Below, one piece after another: positions 20,773 to 52,240 of a stretch of 64,000 bases of DNA. Position numbers and translations under genes: made by a program. The notes below the pieces were generated by a model. The model searched no databases and was not told the DNA's origin. It was given only the letters and a program-made list of their open reading frames with translations. Where the stretch lies: contig OZ240617.1 of NCBI GenBank assembly GCA_965198365.1, positions 2,507,429-2,571,428 of the forward strand. The letters are read 5' to 3'. This DNA is from Candidatus Aldehydirespiratoraceae bacterium. GTDB taxonomy: Bacteria > Actinomycetota > Acidimicrobiia > Acidimicrobiales > Aldehydirespiratoraceae. Within the stretch, counting starts at the first letter, position 1; every line of letters begins with the position of its first letter.

Positions 20773-22572
20773 CTATGTGGCTGAGCGCGCAGATTTCGCA
20801 GAAACAGAGGCCAGTTGGTCTACGGATTGGCGGGCATGATAACTCGAACGGGTCAGCGGGGAAGCCTCCACATGTGCGATTCCCACCGACTCGCCGAAGC
20901 GTTTCCATTCGTCGAACACTTCAGGCTGCCACCACTGGGCTACTGGCAGATGGTGAGATGTCGGGCGCAGGTACTGGCCGATGGTGACAATGTCGACACC
21001 AACCGCGGCCAGGTCTATGAGGGTCTGTCTAATCTCGCTGTCGCGCTCCCCCATCCCCACGATGATCGACGACTTGGTGGTCAAACCAGCGGTTTTGGCG
21101 CGGGCCAGAACTGAGAGACTGCGGGCATAACCGGCCGACGGGCGCACCGCGCGTTGCAACCGCGCCACCGTTTCGATGTTGTGGTTGAACACATCGGGCT
21201 GAGCATCAAACACCTTCTTCAGCGATTCGTTGGATCCTTTGAAGTCCGAAACCAGAGTCTCTACCCGACATTGCGGTGTGCGCTTGCGGATCGCGGCAAC
21301 GACATCGGCGACGGCGCCGGCGCCACCATCTTCAAGGTCGTCACGGGCGACCATTGTGACGACAGCATGACGCAAAGCCATCAACTCGACCGCCTCAGCC
21401 ACACGGGTCGCCTCCTGAGGATCTGGCGCCTCGGGATGCCGCGTGTCGATCAAGCAGAACCCACAAGCTCGAGTGCAGCGATCCCCGAGGATCATGAAAG
21501 TCGCTGTGCCGTCGTTCCAGCACTCGGAAATATTCGGGCAACCCGCTTCTTCGCACACGGTCACGAGTCCGAGTTCACGCATCGTGGACCTGATCCGGCG
21601 ATACTGCGGTCCAGGATCGAACTTCACCCGCATCCACTCAGGCTTGCGCGCGCGCAACCGCACGGGGTCGTGACTGGTGGCCCCCGCTTGAGCAAGGCGT
21701 CCAAGCAACCGCACCGAGGTGCCATCAGCCTGTCTCGCAAATTCCTGCGGTGAGGACGCTTGTCCAGTGATTGCCGGGGTGGGATCCTCAGATTGGTAAC
21801 CGACTCCAGAACGCCCAACCGGTGTGCCTGGGCCTTCTCCACGAGTGAACGGCGCAAAGTCAGCGGGTTTGGTCCTGAACCCAACGCCGGCGCGGTCAAC
21901 TGATCCGTGTTGAGCGAACACAGCCACCGCCCGTTGCGTGAACAGCTCGACCATCTCAGGCATCGAAACGTCAACACCGAGCGCGGCCAGCGAGGTGACG
22001 CCCTTGTCGGGAATGCCACACGGAACGATTCGCTCATACCAGCTCAAATCCGGGTCAACATTGAGCGCCACCCCATGCATGGAGCGTCCCCTGGCTATCC
22101 GCACCCCGATTGCCGCTATCTTCTGGGGCCGTTCTCCGGTGGGATCCACCCAGACGCCGGTACAGCCTTTGATACGCCCCGACTGCACACCAACATCTCC
22201 GAGCGTTTCAATCAAACACTGTTCAAGCGATGACACATACGCGGCGGTGTCGGCCATACCGCCGCCGCGGCGCCCTGGCACATCAACAATGGGATAAGCA
22301 ACAAGTTGACCGGGGCCGTGGTAAGTCACGTCGCCTCCCCGATCCGCTACAAACAACTCCGCACCGAGCGACTCAACGTCGGCAAGCAGATGCTCAGCCG
22401 GCGTACGGCGACTCATGGTCACTACATCGCGATGCTCCAACAACAGCAGATAGTCGTGTTGGCGATTGACGAACAACGACCGTTGCAACGCGAGCGCATC
22501 TGAATAAGCAACCCGTCCCAACCAGCGGACCCGCAGAGTCCGCTCGGCCAAAACCGAACCGTTCAGCACCAA
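20773..22572 (-). CDS. lipB-lipA: single-ORF fusion of lipoyl(octanoyl) transferase LipB (N-terminal) and lipoyl synthase LipA (C-terminal)
   Basis: 599 aa with no in-frame stop. LipB motifs: RGGDVTYHGPGQLV, KIAAIGV, PCG (aa ~10-225). About 55-aa Pro/Gly-rich linker. LipA motifs: CEEAGCPNISEC and radical-SAM CTRACGFC (aa ~283-599). Confidence 0.85.
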   Translation of the reverse strand: MVLNGSVLAERTLRVRWLGRVAYSDALALQRSLFVNRQHDYLLLLEHRDVVTMSRRTPAEHLLADVESLGAELFVADRGGDVTYHGPGQLVAYPIVDVPGRRGGGMADTAAYVSSLEQCLIETLGDVGVQSGRIKGCTGVWVDPTGERPQKIAAIGVRIARGRSMHGVALNVDPDLSWYERIVPCGIPDKGVTSLAALGVDVSMPEMVELFTQRAVAVFAQHGSVDRAGVGFRTKPADFAPFTRGEGPGTPVGRSGVGYQSEDPTPAITGQASSPQEFARQADGTSVRLLGRLAQAGATSHDPVRLRARKPEWMRVKFDPGPQYRRIRSTMRELGLVTVCEEAGCPNISECWNDGTATFMILGDRCTRACGFCLIDTRHPEAPDPQEATRVAEAVELMALRHAVVTMVARDDLEDGGAGAVADVVAAIRKRTPQCRVETLVSDFKGSNESLKKVFDAQPDVFNHNIETVARLQRAVRPSAGYARSLSVLARAKTAGLTTKSSIIVGMGERDSEIRQTLIDLAAVGVDIVTIGQYLRPTSHHLPVAQWWQPEVFDEWKRFGESVGIAHVEASPLTRSSYHARQSVDQLASVSAKSARSAT

Positions 22573-22577
22573 CGCGC

Positions 22578-24077
22578 TCAGTGGACCTCCGCCTCCCAGT
22601 CGCGAGTCTCAATGATCTCTTTGACTCGGTGAAGGAACGCCGCGGCATAGGCGCCATCGAAAGCGCGGTGATCCCAGGCCATCGCCAACACCCCGACCGA
22701 ATGAATGGCGATCGATTCGTTGCCGTAAGAATCAGTGACCACAACCGGTTTTCGTGCCACCCCGTCGGTTGACAAAATCGCCACCTGAGGCTGGTTGATG
22801 ATCGGGAACTGCATCATCGTGCCGTATTGACCGGCGTTAGTCAGCGTGAAAGTGCCACCGGACAGCTCGTCGGGCATCAACTGCCTGGTACGCGCCCGGC
22901 TGGCGACATCCACAATATCTCGAGCGATTTGTCGCAGCCGCTTGCCCTCAGTGCCCTTGATCACCGGTGCCAGCAAGCCGCTGAAATCGATGTCGACAGC
23001 GATGGCAAGGTTGACCTCATCATGGATGACTAGATGGTCACCCCCGAAACTGGCATTGAGATGCGGGTATTCACGCAAGGCATCAACGACGGCGCGCGCA
23101 ATGAACGGCAAGTAGGTGAGGCTGAATCCCTCCTCTGCCTTCCAACCAGATTTGATCGCTTTGCGCACTTTTTCGACACCCTCATAGTCGATTTCCATGG
23201 CCGTGAGCACGTGTGGCGACGCGCTCTTCGACATCACCATGTGTTCTGCAGTGCGCTTGCGAATGTTGTTCAGCACTACGACCTTGTCACGCGTGCCTAC
23301 CTCGGTCGATGGGGTCGCAGTCGTGGCCGCTGGCGTCTTGACCACGGCCGACGGAGGCGGAGGCGTTGCCGGCTCGGATGGCCGCTCGGCGACAGGCGGG
23401 GGCAAAGCCGATTCTGGAGGACTCTGTGGTGGCGCTGCGGACGCGGCAGACGCTCCCGAACGGATCACCGCTTCGGCATCAGCTCGGGTAATGCGGCCAC
23501 CGACGCCTGTGCCGACAATCGTTGAGGGATCGAGTCCGTTGTCGGCTATCAACCGACGCACAACCGGAGACATTAGCGAAATCGGTTTCTCGCGCTCTGA
23601 GGATTCATCGACTGGCGACCCCGTCGGCGTCTCCGCATCGGGAGCAGCCGCGACTCCCGTTGGCGGCGGAGGCGGTGGCGGCAGAGTCGAAGACAGAGGT
23701 GTCTGTGCGCTGGGGGTTTCTCCCTGCTCAGGCTCCGGTTCAGGCTCAGGCTCCGGTTGGGGCTCAGGCTCCGGTTGGGGCTCCGACTCAGGTTCAGGCT
23801 CCGCCAAAACCTCGGGTTCTGCCGGGGCCGGGACGACAGCAGCATCGCCGATCTGGGCAAGAACTTGTCCAACCTCTACCAGGTCTCCCTCGTTGGCGAA
23901 TATCTCGATCAATGTGCCGGCAATGGGCGACGGGACTTCTGAGTCAACCTTGTCAGTGGAAACTTCGAAGAGGATCTCATCCATCTCCACGTGGTCACCG
24001 ACCTGTTTGAACCAGCGGGTGATCGTTCCCTCGGTGACTGTTTCCCCCAACTGGGGCATCGTCACGTCAGCCATCAA
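22578..24077 (-). CDS. dihydrolipoamide acyltransferase (E2) of a 2-oxoacid dehydrogenase complex
   Basis: 499 aa. Lipoyl domain (EVSTDKVDSEVPSP), PE/PQ-rich linkers, E3-binding domain (SPVVRRLIADNGLD), catalytic DHRAFDG. Confidence 0.9.
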   Translation of the reverse strand: MMADVTMPQLGETVTEGTITRWFKQVGDHVEMDEILFEVSTDKVDSEVPSPIAGTLIEIFANEGDLVEVGQVLAQIGDAAVVPAPAEPEVLAEPEPESEPQPEPEPQPEPEPEPEPEQGETPSAQTPLSSTLPPPPPPPTGVAAAPDAETPTGSPVDESSEREKPISLMSPVVRRLIADNGLDPSTIVGTGVGGRITRADAEAVIRSGASAASAAPPQSPPESALPPPVAERPSEPATPPPPSAVVKTPAATTATPSTEVGTRDKVVVLNNIRKRTAEHMVMSKSASPHVLTAMEIDYEGVEKVRKAIKSGWKAEEGFSLTYLPFIARAVVDALREYPHLNASFGGDHLVIHDEVNLAIAVDIDFSGLLAPVIKGTEGKRLRQIARDIVDVASRARTRQLMPDELSGGTFTLTNAGQYGTMMQFPIINQPQVAILSTDGVARKPVVVTDSYGNESIAIHSVGVLAMAWDHRAFDGAYAAAFLHRVKEIIETRDWEAEVH

Positions 24078-25794: not shown

Positions 25795-26376
25795 GTGAAA
25801 CCAAACGTGCTGTCTCCGATCACGGCCGCGTTGTTGGGCGCTGCGCTCTTCGTAAGTGCATGCGGCGACGGAACCGACGACGAAGCCACCCCAGCACAGC
25901 CGGATCCGACGACCACGTCCACGACCGAAGGACCGTCGCCATCAACCGAAGCGGGCGATTCAGTTGCGGTTGCATGGCCCCACGACTGGACCGAGGAACG
26001 CGTCGGTGGAGGCCAATTCGATGCCGGTGACTACGAGGGACAGGATCTCGTGTTGTGGTTTTGGGCGCCATGGTGACCGGCTTGTCAACGCGAAGCCGGT
26101 GCGGTCGCATCGGTTCAGGAACAATTCGCCGGTCAGATCGACATCATCGGCGTCGGTGGCAGCAGCACCTCAGAAGCCGATCTTGAGCGCTTCGTCGGGG
26201 GCTACGGAGTCTTTGACCTCATAAACGTGTCCGACACCGACAATTCGGTATGGGAACGCTACGGCGTCTTCAGCCAGCCGATCTACGCTTTCATCAACGA
26301 CGATGGCACGACCGAGGTGACCAGACTCCCTGTCGCAGAACTCGCCGAACGAATTGAACAGTTGTTGGCCACCTAG
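25795..26376 (+). CDS. TlpA/ResA-like thioredoxin-fold lipoprotein with in-frame TGA (26074-26076) at the first active-site position (W-U-P-A-C); candidate selenoprotein
   Basis: The track ORF 25795-26076 ends ...LVLWFWAPW-TGA. The same frame continues PACQREAGAVASVQEQFAGQIDIIGVGG...SQPIYAFINDDGTTEV... to TAG 26374-26376 (582 nt, in frame). Lipobox LFVSAC. WCxxC redoxin architecture with TGA in place of Cys. Confidence 0.6.
26077..26099 (+). promoter_or_regulatory. hairpin immediately 3' of the in-frame UGA (candidate bacterial SECIS)
   Basis: CCGGCUU-GUCAACGCG-AAGCCGG, a perfect 7-bp stem (8 bp with A26076:U26100) and a 9-nt loop containing G/U. Confidence 0.4.
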
Positions 26377-28796: not shown

Positions 28797-31514
28797 ATGG
28801 CTGACCATTTCTCCCGCCAACTACCCGACATCGACCCAGCCGAAACCACCGAGTGGATCGATTCCCTTGATGCAGTCCATGCCAGTCAAGGTCAAGCTCG
28901 GGCCCGGTACCTGCTCGCCAAGCTGCTTGAGCGTTCCAACGAACTCCAAATCGGAGTCCCCCCGACTACCAGCACACCCTACATCAACACCATCCCCGCC
29001 GAATCGCAACCTTTCTTTCCCGGCGACGAGAACATAGAGCGACGCATTCGGGCCATCATCCGTTGGAACGCTGCGGCCATGGTGATCCGCGCCAACAAGA
29101 TCGCTGACGGCATCGGCGGCCACCTGTCAACGTTCGCTTCAAGCGCAGCCCTCTACGAAGTCGGCTTCAACCATTTCTTTCGAGGCAAAGAAGACGGACT
29201 CCCCGGTGACCATGTGTACTTCCAGGGACATGCTGCCCCAGGGGTCTACGCACGGGCCTTCCTTGAGGGGCGCCTCAACGAGCAACAACTCGACAATTTC
29301 CGCATGGAAGTCGGCGGGAACGGCCTTTCAAGCTACCCGCACCCTCGCTTGATGCCGGAGTTTTGGGAGTACCCCACCGTCTCCATGGGTCTGGGCCCGA
29401 TCAATTCGATCTACCACGCCCGTTTCAACCGCTACATGCATCAACGCAAAATCGACGACACCTCGCAAAGCAACGTGTGGAGCTTTCTCGGCGACGGCGA
29501 ATGCGACGAACCCGAAACCCTCGGCGCGATCGCCCTGGCAGGTCGATCCGCCCTCGACAATTTGAAATGGATCGTCAACTGCAACCTGCAGCGCCTTGAC
29601 GGACCCGTCAGAGGCAACGGAAAAATAATCCAAGAACTTGAAGGCGTATTCCGTGGCGCCGGCTGGAACGTCATCAAGGTGATCTGGGGTAGTCGCTGGG
29701 ATGAACTGCTGCATCGCGATGTAGATGGTGTGCTCCTCAACAAGATGTCCGAAACAGTCGACGGCGAATACCAGCGTTTCGCCGTCGAAGACGGCGCCTA
29801 CATCCGCGAAAAGTTCTTCGGACCAGACCCGAGACTGCGCAAGCTCGTAGAACACCTGAGCGACGACGACCTCAAAGCGCTCCCCCGCGGGGGCCACGAC
29901 TACCAAAAGGTCTACGCCGCTTTCAAAGCTGCAGCTCAGACCACTGGACTACCAACCGTGATCCTCGCCAAGACCATCAAGGGCTGGACCCTTGGTGAGG
30001 GTTTCGAAGGACGCAACGCCACCCACCAGATCAAGAAGATGACCAAGGCACAACTTCTGGAACTAAGGGCCAGGCTCCGGATGGAAGAGGAAATCTCCGA
30101 GGATTCACTCGAAGACGGCATCCCACCTTATTACCGGCCATCACCAGACGGAGAGGAGCGCGCCTATCTGATGGAGCGACGCCGCGCACTCGACGGGCCC
30201 CTGCCCAGCCGCATCGTACGAGACCGCCGACCACTCAAGTTGCCCAGCGAGGCACCCTTCCTTGATCTCCAGAAAGGCTCCTCAGGGCGCTCGGTATCGA
30301 CCACAATGGCTTTCACTACAGTGTTGCGAGACCTGCTGAGAGACAAGCGATTCGGCGAACGTGTCGTGCCGATCGTCCCCGACGAGGCCCGCACCTTCGG
30401 GATGGACTCGCTGTTTCGAGAGTTCCGCATATACGCGCCGCAAGGCCAACTCTACGAACCAGTCGACCACGACCTGCTGCTCTCCTACGCCGAATCTGAA
30501 GACGGGCAGATCCTTGAAGAGGGCATAACCGAATGTGGTTCGACCGCTGAGTGGATCGCCGCTGGAACCGCCTATGCCAACAGCGGTGTTCCTATGGTCC
30601 CGTTCTACACCTTTTACTCAATGTTCGGGTTTCAGAGGGTCGGTGACTCGCTGTGGGCAGCAGCTGACGCCCGCACGCGGGGTTTTCTCATGGGCGCCAC
30701 CGCAGGCCGCACCACCCTGCTCGGCGAAGGACTACAGCATCAAGACGGTCACAGCATGCTGTTGGCATCAACGGTTCCCTCCTGCGAAGCGTATGACCCC
30801 GCCTTCGCCTACGAACTCGGCACGATCTTGCGCCAGGGTCTGCATCGGATGTACCCCGACGGCCGATCCGCCGATGGCGAAGACGTGTTTTATTACATCA
30901 CGATCTACAACGAGAACTACGAACAACCCCCGCGTCCAGATCATGTTCAGGATCGCGACATCACCGACGGAATCTACAAGTTCGACGATGGCCCCGACGA
31001 GACTGAGCGCCGCGCGACCATCCTCTTTTCGGGCACCTTGAACCTGGCCGCGCGCGAAGCCCAACAGATCCTCGTCGACGACTACGACATCGGCGTCGAA
31101 CTCTGGAGCGTCACCTCCTACAAGCGACTTCGCGCCGACGCTCTGGACGTGGAACGTCGCAACCGATTGTCTCCTGATCGGCCCCCAGAGTTGTCCAACG
31201 TGACACGCAGACTCAGCGACAGCGAGGGACCGATCGTGGCTGTGTCGGATTGGATGACGCTGGTGCCCGATCAGATCGCACGGTGGACGCCTCGTCCGCT
31301 ACATGTCCTCGGGACCGACGGTTTCGGTCGTTCCGACACGAGGGAAGCGTTGCGGCGATTCTTCGAGATCGACGCCGACAATATCGTGGTGGCGGTACTG
31401 TCAGCCATGCTCGAGGAAGGCACCGCTACCCGCGAGGAAGTCAGCCGTGCCATCGCCAAGGCCGGTATCGACCCGTACCGCCCCGACCCAGCCCATCCAG
31501 ATACCGGTGCCTGA
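28797..31514 (+). CDS. aceE: pyruvate dehydrogenase E1 component, homodimeric type
   Basis: 905 aa. GGHLSTFASSAALYEVGFNHFF and GDGECDEPE motifs of AceE. Confidence 0.95.
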   Translation: MADHFSRQLPDIDPAETTEWIDSLDAVHASQGQARARYLLAKLLERSNELQIGVPPTTSTPYINTIPAESQPFFPGDENIERRIRAIIRWNAAAMVIRANKIADGIGGHLSTFASSAALYEVGFNHFFRGKEDGLPGDHVYFQGHAAPGVYARAFLEGRLNEQQLDNFRMEVGGNGLSSYPHPRLMPEFWEYPTVSMGLGPINSIYHARFNRYMHQRKIDDTSQSNVWSFLGDGECDEPETLGAIALAGRSALDNLKWIVNCNLQRLDGPVRGNGKIIQELEGVFRGAGWNVIKVIWGSRWDELLHRDVDGVLLNKMSETVDGEYQRFAVEDGAYIREKFFGPDPRLRKLVEHLSDDDLKALPRGGHDYQKVYAAFKAAAQTTGLPTVILAKTIKGWTLGEGFEGRNATHQIKKMTKAQLLELRARLRMEEEISEDSLEDGIPPYYRPSPDGEERAYLMERRRALDGPLPSRIVRDRRPLKLPSEAPFLDLQKGSSGRSVSTTMAFTTVLRDLLRDKRFGERVVPIVPDEARTFGMDSLFREFRIYAPQGQLYEPVDHDLLLSYAESEDGQILEEGITECGSTAEWIAAGTAYANSGVPMVPFYTFYSMFGFQRVGDSLWAAADARTRGFLMGATAGRTTLLGEGLQHQDGHSMLLASTVPSCEAYDPAFAYELGTILRQGLHRMYPDGRSADGEDVFYYITIYNENYEQPPRPDHVQDRDITDGIYKFDDGPDETERRATILFSGTLNLAAREAQQILVDDYDIGVELWSVTSYKRLRADALDVERRNRLSPDRPPELSNVTRRLSDSEGPIVAVSDWMTLVPDQIARWTPRPLHVLGTDGFGRSDTREALRRFFEIDADNIVVAVLSAMLEEGTATREEVSRAIAKAGIDPYRPDPAHPDTGA

Positions 31515-50039: not shown

Positions 50040-51506
50040 GTGTGCCACAGTTGGCGAGTGCCCAATACCAAAACCGCTCCGCTCCCCGATGGTCTCGTAG
50101 CCGTTGTCAAAAAGGACTGCCCGACTTGTGTTCTAGTGGCACCAGTCTTAGCCGATCTGGCCGAACGCATTGGAGTCTCAGTCATCACCCAAGACGACCC
50201 CACCTTTCCCCAAAGCGCCGACTGGGTAACCCACGATGCCGACCTCGCCTTGTCATGGCATAACCAAATCGAGACAGTACCCACGCTGCTGCGAGTCGAC
50301 GACGGTTCCGAAGCCGATCGCATAGTCGGTTGGTCTCGCCAGGCTTGGGAAGAGTTCACTGGGCTCAACGGTCTCGGAACCGACCTTCCCGATTGGAGAC
50401 CCGGATGCGGCTCACTGAGTGTCGATCCCAACCTCAGCGATGAACTCGCCGTGCGCTTCTCAGGTTCAATACTAAAAAGTCGGCGAATCGAACTCGCCGA
50501 GTTGGAAGATGACGTAGAAGCCATGTTCGACCGCGGGTTCAGTGATGGAATGCCGGTCGTACCCCCAACCGAGGCGCGTGTGCTGAGAATGCTTGAAGGC
50601 ACAAGTCGCTCAGCGGAGGAGGTGGTGGCCGTCATACCACCCGATCTGGTCGAATGCACCGTCGAGAAAGTGGCTGTCAACGCAGTAATGGCCGGCTGCA
50701 AGCCCGAGTATCTCCCTGTGGTGCTGAGCGCGGTCGAAGCAGCCTGCACCGACGAGTTCAACATGCACGGACTGTTGGCCACCACTATGCCGGTAGGTCC
50801 AATCCTGATCGTCAACGGACCCGTCCGTCACGAAATTCACATGAACAGCGGCCTCAATCTGTTGGGCCAAGGGAACCGCGCCAACAACACCATCGGCCGT
50901 GCTCTCCAGTTGGTTGTTCGCAATGTCGGTGGAGGCAAACCCGGCGGTGTCGACCGCGCCACCCAGGGCAGCCCCTCAAAGATCGGGTTGTGCTTCGCCG
51001 AAGACGAAGAGGGCAGCGCCTTCGACACCTTCGCCGAATCCCGCGGTTTCGACCGCAACGTCTCCACCGTCACCCTGTTCCCCGGGGAAGGCCCCCGACT
51101 GATGTTCGATCAGAAGTCGCGTTCGCCGGAATCGCTCACCAAGCACTTCGCCGAAATGCTGCGCGTCAACGTCAGCCCGAGAATGGTCATGTCGATGGAA
51201 ACCGTGATCGTGATGAGTCCTGAACATATGGCCCGATACCGAGATGCCTCCTGGGACAGGGCCCGCTTTCTGGCAGAACTTGAAGCGCTGCTAATGATCG
51301 ACGGCGACGACATAATTGCCGGCTCCGGCGGAATCGAAGAGGGTATGCCGACAGTCCTCGCAGGCCGTCAGCTACCGAAGTTCCCGCCTGGAGGGATTCA
51401 TGTTGTTCACGGAGGCAGCCGTGCTGGGTTGTTCTCTTCTACCATCGCTGGTTGGGTGACCGGCGCAACCGGTAGCGTGACTGTCACAAAGGAGATCACT
51501 CGATGA
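50040..51506 (+). CDS. thioredoxin-fold (CPTC) N-terminal domain fused to a ~370-aa domain of unknown function
   Basis: 488 aa. VAVVKKDCPTCVLVAPVL...IETVPTLLRV is a Trx-like unit. The remainder is not recognised. ATGA overlap with the next gene. Confidence 0.6.
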   Translation: MCHSWRVPNTKTAPLPDGLVAVVKKDCPTCVLVAPVLADLAERIGVSVITQDDPTFPQSADWVTHDADLALSWHNQIETVPTLLRVDDGSEADRIVGWSRQAWEEFTGLNGLGTDLPDWRPGCGSLSVDPNLSDELAVRFSGSILKSRRIELAELEDDVEAMFDRGFSDGMPVVPPTEARVLRMLEGTSRSAEEVVAVIPPDLVECTVEKVAVNAVMAGCKPEYLPVVLSAVEAACTDEFNMHGLLATTMPVGPILIVNGPVRHEIHMNSGLNLLGQGNRANNTIGRALQLVVRNVGGGKPGGVDRATQGSPSKIGLCFAEDEEGSAFDTFAESRGFDRNVSTVTLFPGEGPRLMFDQKSRSPESLTKHFAEMLRVNVSPRMVMSMETVIVMSPEHMARYRDASWDRARFLAELEALLMIDGDDIIAGSGGIEEGMPTVLAGRQLPKFPPGGIHVVHGGSRAGLFSSTIAGWVTGATGSVTVTKEITR

Positions 51507-52021
51507 CTGTTGTTCTTGATCCCACCGCTGAGTTGCGGCCCAACAAACGTGAGCGTGTCGCTCGACCCGAGTCTCTCAACGGACTAACGGTCGGACTACT
51601 CGACATCTCCAAGCCCCGGGGAGACATTTTTCTCAACCGCGTAGAGCAGAAGCTGACCGGCCTCGGCGTCAACGTGAAGCGCTTCAAAAAGCCGACGTTC
51701 ACCAAGCCGGCGCCGGTCGATCTGCGCCATGAGATTGCCGTGTCCTGCGACGCGGTGATCGAAGCGCTCGCCGATTGAGGTTCCTGCACGACGTGCAGTG
51801 TGCACGACATCAACGATCTGGAACGCCGCGGCATTCCAGGAGTGTTCGTTGCCACCGTTGAGTTCGCCGACGGTGCCGAGCAACAAAGCAAGAGCCTCGG
51901 AGGTGACATAGCCCACGTCTTGACCGAGCACCCCATCCAGGACCGCACCGACTCAGAGATGGTCGCTATCGCCGATCAAGCAATCGACGCCCTGTTGAAT
52001 TCACTCACAGGCCCCGGTTGA
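51503..52021 (+). CDS. small U-G-S-C motif protein with in-frame TGA (51776-51778); candidate selenoprotein
   Basis: Track ORFs 51503-51778 and 51800-52021 share one frame. Read-through gives ...CDAVIEALAD-U-GSCTTCSVHDINDLERRGIPGVFVATVEF... (172 aa). Hairpins lie directly after the TGA. Confidence 0.6.
51784..51806 (+). promoter_or_regulatory. overlapping alternative hairpins 6-30 nt downstream of the in-frame UGA (candidate SECIS)
   Basis: CUGCAC-GAC-GUGCAG (51784-51798) or CGUGCA-GUG-UGCACG (51792-51806). The second has a GUG apical loop about 20 nt from the UGA. Confidence 0.4.
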
Positions 52022-52240
52022 CCCCACCAACCACGCCAGCCAACAGGTCGCGCCGACCCGCCAGTCACGCCGCGAACAAGCCACGCCGACCGCCGAGTCA
52101 CGCCAGCCAACAGGTCGCGCCGACCAGCCAGTCACGCCGCGAACAAGCCACGCCGCGAACAAGCCACGCCAACCAACAAGCCGCGCCGACCGGCCAGCCA
52201 CGCCAGCCAACAAGCCGCGCCGACCCGCCAGCCTCGCCGT
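52022..52240. repeat. GC-rich minisatellite (degenerate ~16-17-nt CACGCC... subunits forming ~50-nt higher-order repeats)
   Basis: CACGCCAGCCAACAGGTCGCGCCGACC(C/A)GCCAGTCACGCCGCGAACAAGC occurs twice (about 52032 and 52100), with further CACGCCGCGAACAAGC / CACGCCAGCCAACAAGCCGCGCCGACC variants. Convergent intergenic region. Confidence 0.8.

Follow-up and report, generated by a model that had tools for sequence, protein, structure and literature searches.

Does the TGA triplet at positions 26074 to 26076 of a 64,000-nucleotide stretch from a Candidatus Aldehydirespiratoraceae bacterium (contig OZ240617.1; the whole stretch is referred to here as the window) end a short gene, or does it encode the catalytic residue of a longer thioredoxin-like lipoprotein? 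The mechanical list of open reading frames (ORFs) closes the frame at this triplet, after ...LVLWFWAPW. A preliminary description of the window had proposed that the triplet is instead read as selenocysteine (Sec). The evidence described below makes it highly probable that Sec is inserted at UGA 26074, which would give one 193-residue exported thioredoxin-fold lipoprotein with the motif U-P-A-C and Sec at residue 94 (Sec94). The decisive observations are that the protein domain continues across the TGA, that the TGA column is conserved in diverged homologues, and that TGA is a normal stop codon in the window. The parts of the gene are as follows.

25795 to 26376, forward strand: complete predicted selenoprotein gene that opens with GTG, has 193 codons (Sec is number 94), and closes with TAG.
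25795 to 25863, forward strand: lipoprotein signal peptide, VKPNVLSPITAALLGAALF-VSAC, recognized by eye from the sequence.
25864 to 25968, forward strand: linker that joins the lipid anchor to the catalytic domain and has a high content of Thr, Pro, Ser, and Asp, from the sequence and alignment A1 of six orthologues.
25984 to 26310, forward strand: thioredoxin-fold redoxin domain, residues 64 to 172, spanning the Sec codon, from Pfam and PDB sequence matches.
26074 to 26085, forward strand: redox motif U-P-A-C (TGA CCG GCT TGT), with the Sec codon TGA at 26074 to 26076.

The frame that opens with GTG at 25795 and closes with TAG at 26374 to 26376 contains a single in-frame TGA. After it, 99 further codons follow in frame (PACQREAG...LLAT; PACQREAGAVASVQEQFAGQ...ERIEQLLAT) up to the TAG, and both the ORF stop at 26076 and the same-frame continuation given in the preliminary description are present. 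The 99-codon open frame alone is weak evidence for read-through because 7.5% of all stop codons in the window are likewise followed by at least 99 open codons. The domain content of the frame is more informative. When Cys was written in place of the TGA stop for the domain search, Pfam AhpC-TSA matched residues 64 to 172 with 45.9 bits (gathering score 26), and Pfam Redoxin matched residues 70 to 171 with 39.1 bits (gathering score 26.6). Both matches span codon 94. The best match among solved structures was Mycobacterium tuberculosis DsbF (Rv1677, PDB 3IOS; E = 1.2e-22, 39% identity over 119 residues), followed by M. tuberculosis DsbE/MPT53 (Rv2878c, PDB 1LU4; E = 4.4e-19) and by ResA structures (E of about 1e-10). 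In the alignment with DsbF, WFWAPW-U-PACQREA of the query lies on WFWAPW-C-PTCQGEA. The TGA thus occupies the first Cys of the W-C-P-x-C thioredoxin-fold site, facing the first Cys of the DsbF CPTC, which is where the preliminary description had placed it. U-P-A-C is a thioredoxin-like UxxC motif and not the TxxU motif of true peroxiredoxins.

The N terminus was also as previously described. A lipobox, V-S-A-C, is encoded at 25852 to 25863, and its Cys23 (25861 to 25863), predicted from the sequence to be lipidated, is invariant in alignment A1. The criterion was the pattern [LVI][ASTVI][GAS]C with a conserved Cys, and it was applied by reading the sequence alone. The linker that follows varies in length and sequence among the orthologues; alignment A1 has 226 columns for the 193-amino-acid query, with gaps in this region.

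The joined sequence had 125 matches in a protein search. The seven closest proteins (48 to 83% identity, 29 to 48% coverage) all end exactly at ...LVLWFWAPW and are recorded without a redoxin or thioredoxin Pfam domain. More distant matches (Amycolatopsis, Mycolicibacter, Lentzea, and others) read WFWAPWCPxC. In the contigs behind the truncated proteins, the terminal codon is TGA in seven of seven, and in all of those contigs that are sufficiently long the 99-codon frame goes on without frameshifts to a stop at the same place (...LLAT*). The public gene calls of the seven contigs consist of an N-terminal fragment and a separate C-terminal gene of 60 to 87 amino acids without a Pfam match, and all examined public records divide the gene in this way, with truncated "hypothetical" N-terminal products of 93 to 224 amino acids; those of L001 to L009 and of the public protein collection have 107 to 224 amino acids and end in WFWAPW. 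Gene callers divide the gene in the window in the same manner, into a 93-amino-acid fragment and an orphan C-terminal half. An exact look-up of this 93-amino-acid fragment in the contig index returned no record.

A scan of one genome per species yielded 80 loci, seven of which have TGA at the Sec column. These seven come from four Candidatus Aldehydirespiratoraceae metagenome-assembled genomes (MAGs), an Acidimicrobiaceae sponge MAG, an Acidimicrobiales MAG, and one MAG labelled Gammaproteobacteria. The Sec column in the remaining loci, which are more distant actinobacterial homologues, holds TGC or TGT at 75 sites. Metagenome contigs were then scanned for the exact pattern W-F-W-A-P-W-TGA-CC, which was found in at least 120 stretches. 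Together with the genome loci these stretches represent at least 93 unique U-x-x-C sequences, nearly all of which have about 100 open codons after the TGA where the contig is long enough. Whether homologues carry Cys or UGA at this column had been raised in the preliminary description; all close orthologues carry TGA, and the 75 distant sites carry a Cys codon.

The ratio of nonsynonymous to synonymous substitution rates (dN/dS) was evaluated among 11 close orthologues. For the 99 codons after the TGA, the median was 0.18 and the maximum 0.455 (47 pairs); for the 33 codons before the TGA, the ratio was 0.05. The half of the gene that follows the TGA is under purifying selection. Decay of this half, named beforehand as a finding that would speak against Sec, was not seen, either as frameshifts or in the median dN/dS.

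Ordinary termination in the window most often uses TGA, which ends 35 of 55 long ORFs. For example, the 905-codon pyruvate dehydrogenase E1 gene (28797 to 31514) ends in TGA. TGA is also the ordinary stop of many members of the redoxin family and of the second candidate selenoprotein gene described below. Because TGA is a normal stop in the window, the genetic code is standard and any decoding of UGA 26074 to 26076 is local. The preliminary description had argued for local recoding on the same grounds, and it had pointed to a second case at 51776. That case is found in the following gene.

51503 to 52021, forward strand: predicted second selenoprotein gene, UGSC family (NCBIfam NF041046, Pfam PF24696).

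The UGSC gene lies about 25 kb from the redoxin gene. It starts with ATG at 51503, behind an AAGGAG ribosome-binding site at 51489 to 51494, has its Sec TGA at 51776 to 51778 (U-G-S-C), and ends with an ordinary TGA stop at 52019 to 52021. The product scored 151.5 bits with the NCBIfam model NF041046, "UGSC family (seleno)protein," above the curated cut-off of 125, and 135.6 bits with Pfam PF24696. A candidate Sec insertion sequence (SECIS) is present at 51792 to 51806, with a 6-bp stem, a GUG loop at 51798 to 51800, a folding energy of -7.4 kcal/mol, and 19 nucleotides between the UGA and the loop. In a scan of the window that considered codon usage and in-frame TGA codons with Cys, Ser, or Thr nearby, only 26074 and 51776 were convincing. 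Directly after the stop of the UGSC gene there is an imperfect tandem repeat (52023 to 52238), for which Tandem Repeats Finder gave periods of 17, 34, and 67 nucleotides; it comprises 6.4 copies of a 34-nucleotide unit, CCCGCCAGCCACGCCAGCCAACAAGCCGCGCCGA, with 78% matches.

If UGA 26074 is decoded as Sec, then a bacterial SECIS (bSECIS) is expected shortly downstream within the coding sequence. Two hairpins can be drawn there.

26077 to 26099, forward strand: hairpin H1, CCGGCUU / AAGCCGG, a perfect 7-bp stem.
26095 to 26114, forward strand: SECIS-like hairpin H2, stem 26095 to 26102 with 26107 to 26114 (8 bp), loop GGUC at 26103 to 26106.

H1 and H2 are mutually exclusive, as both need AGCCGG at 26094 to 26099. 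H1 is the hairpin that the preliminary description had put forward as the SECIS. The comparisons described below indicate that H2, and not H1, is the probable SECIS-like element: it fits the bSECIS model, it covaries, and it is missing from the Cys forms.

H2 has the sequence GCCGGUGC-GGUC-GCAUCGGU, which codes for A-G-A-V-A-S-V, and may be extended by one pair, A26094-U26115. It folds at -12.7 kcal/mol (z = -3.9), and 0 of 200 shuffled sequences folded as well. The stem begins 18 nucleotides after the UGA and the loop 26 nucleotides after it. The published bSECIS model calls for a loop of 3 to 9 nucleotides with G in its first two positions, a stem of 4 to 16 bp, 16 to 37 nucleotides from the UGA to the loop, and a minimum free energy at or below -7.5 kcal/mol (PMC13188914). 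H2, with its 4-nucleotide loop, 8-bp stem, distance of 26 nucleotides, and energy of -12.7 kcal/mol, lies within each of these limits, and its loop has G first, then G, then U.

Covariation was tested in a gap-free alignment of the 93 UGA forms (A2) against 500 column shuffles. In this alignment 78.2% of the H2 cells are paired versus 70.8% after shuffling, and the covariation score is 0.238 versus 0.132; 0 of 500 shuffles reached the observed value in either case. When the register was slid, 32 to 49% of cells were paired. The exchanges are visible at individual pairs of third codon positions. Columns 24 and 39 hold C-G in 61 sequences, U-G in 10, G-C in 3, U-A in 2, and A-U in 1, with two-sided changes in 6 sequences. 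Columns 27 and 36 hold U-A in 70, C-G in 11, U-G in 2, and G-C in 1, with two-sided changes in 12. Exchanges of pairs at largely synonymous sites point to a probable constraint on the H2 RNA itself.

Of the 93 Sec forms, 61 make 7 or all 8 of the H2 pairs, versus 0 of the 75 Cys forms, and the GGUC loop is found in 84 of 93 Sec forms versus 8 of 75 Cys forms. Loci L003 and L005 retain H2 with an exchange of G-U for C-G. L015 and L016 share every nucleotide of the H2 core (CCGGUGC-GGUC-GCAUCGG) with the window, and their proteins are just 46 to 50% identical to that of the window. The commonest form of H2 in the metagenomes has an internal C/A mismatch; there is no bulge in the lineage of the window. 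Most of the 25 Sec forms that do not have H2 in the standard register have another hairpin with G in the loop a few nucleotides upstream or downstream, and in four of the 25 the GC-GGUC-GC motif is displaced by two codons. These patterns suggest that the position of the SECIS has drifted within a single protein family. The forms without H2 fall into sub-families (L120, L121, L132, L143, L157, L170, L181, L183, and L203; L133, L142, L166, and L188; L094, L195, L102, L105, and L168). The alternative hairpins found there are CGCGC-AGUUG-GCGCG about 6 nucleotides further downstream, the shifted GC-GGUC-GC, and GAGGCC-AGUUC-GGUCUC further upstream.

Several results weigh against Sec insertion through H2. 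Searches of the 64-kb window and of 302 fetched loci (2.2 Mb) detected no tRNA-Sec, selA, selB, or selD; ARAGORN and Rfam were applied to the window, and motifs of the SelD N terminus and the SelB GTPase G1, together with ARAGORN, were applied to both the window and the 302 loci. The doubt that is left about Sec decoding arises because the Sec machinery of this genome was seen in neither place. An Rfam E-value scan of 26000 to 26200 yielded no SECIS model and only noise (E above 3); bacterial SECIS elements are poorly covered in Rfam. The fold of the whole region is only mildly better than that of shuffled sequences (z = -1.65). Part of the conservation of H2 could stem from the conserved peptide A-[GP]-A-V-A-x-V, and the control of 500 shuffles ignores shared ancestry among the sequences.

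The alternative that H1 is the functional SECIS starts from a real structure. H1 folds at -10.7 kcal/mol (z = -2.9; 1 of 200 shuffles as good), and its 7-bp stem is perfect in five sequences (L001, L002, L010, L011, and the window), with one mismatch in 5 more close relatives. However, H1 is broken in L003, L005, L015, and L016, and it is perfect or near-perfect solely in an Aldehydirespiratoraceae-like lineage. Across the 93 UGA forms of A2, 49.0% of the H1 cells are paired versus 49.1% after shuffling, the covariation score is 0.068 versus 0.072, and slid registers give 27 to 44% paired cells. The H1 loop begins 7 nucleotides after the UGA versus the published 16 to 37 nucleotides (PMC13188914), and the 5' arm of H1 would probably lie inside the ribosome when the UGA occupies the A site. 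Thus, the hairpin of the preliminary description exists, but its proposed role as the SECIS is highly unlikely given its lack of conservation, its lack of covariation, and its short spacing. H1 could be a mere by-product of the codons for P-A-C and E-A-G, or it could be a lineage-specific modulator. A more elaborate conjecture, and a long shot, is that H1 and H2 form a small switch in the Aldehydirespiratoraceae lineage, in which the 5' arm of the SECIS would stay masked by H1 until H1 is melted by a translating ribosome. If so, SelB would be recruited only to mRNAs under translation, with tuning of when or how efficiently Sec is inserted. Bearing on this idea is the finding that H1 is near-perfect in close relatives and absent from the wider family.

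Other explanations for the in-frame UGA do not involve Sec at all. The UGA might be read through by near-cognate pairing with tRNA(Cys) or tRNA(Trp), or by some unknown suppressor, the hairpin serving only as a general stimulator. This would agree with the fact that no Sec machinery was seen in the window or the fetched loci, but it is quite improbable. The UGA is always on the redox Cys column, a pattern typical of Sec; the hairpin matches the SelB-type SECIS consensus, including a loop with G and then U; and the window also contains a member of a curated selenoprotein family that has a UGA of its own. Furthermore, related Acidimicrobiia carry the genes for Sec decoding: Actinomarinales, which belong to the same class, are reported to have selA, selB, selC, and selD, along with about five selenoproteins in each genome (bioRxiv 10.64898/2026.04.03.716425, a 2026 preprint). 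By analogy, a Sec-decoding trait is plausible in the organism of the window. A pseudogene or a sequencing error, in which a change of TGC or TGT to TGA killed a Cys-type redoxin, has next to no probability. Gene callers do stop at this TGA, and the open frame after it could, at the frequency noted above for window stops, reflect chance or gene adjacency. However, the same TGA recurs in independent assemblies with 46 to 83% protein identity and in the 93 unique U-x-x-C sequences, the region downstream has a dN/dS of about 0.18 and no frameshifts, and a hairpin is conserved along with the TGA only in UGA forms. Intended termination at the UGA, giving a short 93-residue lipoprotein with the downstream part separate or unexpressed, would match public annotations that give two separate genes, yet it is just as hard to credit. 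Such a product would break off halfway through the thioredoxin fold, just short of the catalytic motif. No conserved start codon opens the downstream part, which is always in frame without a gap, and the Pfam domain is continuous across the junction.

Sec insertion at UGA 26074 could then proceed as follows. With the UGA in the A site, the mRNA downstream would be inside the ribosome and H1 would be melted, judging from the known ribosome footprint. By the same reasoning, holding the 5' arm of H1 within the ribosome would free AGCCGG for H2. H2 would form at the mRNA entrance and act as a bSECIS, with SelB-GTP-Sec-tRNA(Sec) outcompeting release factor 2; the conservation of H2, its covariation, and its fit to the bSECIS model are consistent with this step. 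The full-length protein, judging from its sequence, would be exported via the signal peptide, receive its lipid on Cys23, and be held outside the membrane through the Thr/Pro-rich linker. There it may exchange disulfides with substrate proteins through a Sec94-Cys97 selenenylsulfide, as DsbF and DsbE use their CPxC pair, a role suggested by the 39% identity with DsbF and the exact alignment of the motifs. From general selenoprotein chemistry, Sec in the attacking position should speed the exchange relative to Cys.

The closest counterparts of the predicted protein are DsbF and DsbE. They share with it an identical active-site context, VLWFWAPWCPxCQxEA, and like it they are extracytoplasmic actinobacterial redoxins, export of the window protein being predicted from its signal peptide and lipobox. 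They differ in that their site is Cys-Pro-x-Cys whereas the window protein has Sec first. Mycobacterial DsbF and DsbE have been reported to act as oxidases. The preliminary description had called the protein TlpA-like. This holds at the level of the superfamily, as TlpA, ResA, and DsbE(CcmG) have the same fold, the same W-C-x-x-C surroundings, and likewise are membrane-anchored outside the cell. It does not extend to membership, because the scores were far under the curated NCBIfam cut-offs for ResA (NF002854, 44.9 versus 170 bits), TlpA (NF047696, 23.4 versus 230 bits), and DsbE-CcmG (TIGR00385, 20.2 versus 123 bits). The ResA-like WAxxUGC motif-containing protein (NF041054), or UGC-containing TlpA family selenoprotein, is a TlpA-superfamily selenoprotein too, but the window protein is not a member, with 16.5 bits versus a cut-off of 300 and the motif UPAC versus UGC.

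Selenoprotein families of a similar kind have been predicted from genomes and from environmental sequence data. A "Prx-like protein" was represented by 22 sequences in Sargasso Sea data (PMC1088965), and the Global Ocean Sampling data contained 225 sequences of "Prx-like 1" and 68 of "Prx-like 3" (PMC2398784). A 2026 review lists a "Prx-like thiol:disulfide oxidoreductase, PF00578, UxxC/UxxU" and a "Redoxin family protein, PF08534, UxxC" (PMC13188914). The window protein resembles these families in having the same Pfam domains above gathering score, Sec first in a thioredoxin-like UxxC motif, a bSECIS candidate within the gene just downstream, abundant Cys homologues, a marine distribution, and UxxU relatives. 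It differs in that its clade consists of an Acidimicrobiales DsbE/DsbF-type lipoprotein with a fixed position adjacent to lpdA. The redoxin gene fits the known predicted Prx-like/Redoxin UxxC families, and assignment to one named family (exemplars WP_010940744.1 and HEU0032618.1) is by domain and motif only. The putative SECIS can be compared with that of Escherichia coli fdhF, a hairpin bound by SelB, in which G23 and U24 are exposed in the apical loop (PMC8659212). Both are hairpins inside the coding sequence after the UGA with G-U in a small apical loop, here GGUC. In fdhF the upper stem-loop is 11 nucleotides from the UGA and has a bulged U17, whereas the stem of H2 is 18 nucleotides from the UGA and has no bulge.

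A subclade found in the metagenomes (L097:2264, L108, L112, L137, L144, L150, L182, and L192) has TGA in place of both active-site Cys codons (W-U-P-[FVH]-U). About 95 open codons follow the second TGA, and there is a single GGUC-loop hairpin, CCUAC/CCCAC-GGUC-GUAG/GUGG, so that two UGA codons 9 nucleotides apart would both depend on the one hairpin. Published work mentions Prx-like proteins of the UxxU form (PMC2398784, PMC13188914).

The redoxin gene is divergent to the adjoining lpdA, and an E2 gene and a gene for a fused lipoate ligase and lipoyl synthase are found further on. On its other flank are a LapA-domain gene, an epimerase gene, an RNase H gene, and aceE. Adjacency to lpdA is found in all seven UGA-bearing species-representative genomes and in 0 of 73 Cys-form loci. 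Because no Cys-form locus adjoins lpdA, a switch from Cys to Sec in place cannot be traced. No cytochrome c maturation or CcdA-like genes are adjacent to the redoxin gene in the window and related contigs. The fusion gene that adjoins E2 and lpdA is a 611-residue ORF at 20776 to 22608 on the reverse strand, with a lipoate-protein ligase A/B catalytic domain and a lipoyl synthase (LIAS_N plus Radical_SAM), and the same fusion occurs in related contigs.

The DNA of the window is about 97% identical to that of two Candidatus Aldehydirespiratoraceae MAGs, and the host is a marine or sponge-associated Acidimicrobiales bacterium. One of the contigs with a Sec redoxin next to lpdA, L015 (CAXMSE010000093.1), is labelled "uncultured Gammaproteobacteria bacterium." Its LpdA and AceE proteins are 74% and 82% identical to those of the window, and it is most likely a misbinned Acidimicrobiales contig.

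Thioredoxin-fold UxxC selenoproteins of the Prx-like/Redoxin kind have been catalogued since 2004 to 2008, and the biology of this gene is not new in kind. The practical value of the finding lies in annotation, because the Sec redoxin clade is systematically truncated and is large, with at least 120 metagenome stretches. The finding also marks a sponge-associated or marine family of Acidimicrobiales as a probable user of selenocysteine. The clade and its relatives amount to a clean natural collection in which an exported oxidoreductase of the DsbE/DsbF type occurs in both Sec and Cys versions, with a well-defined GGUC-loop SECIS candidate and UxxU variants. Such a collection could help in studying what favours the use of Sec in extracytoplasmic redox chemistry.

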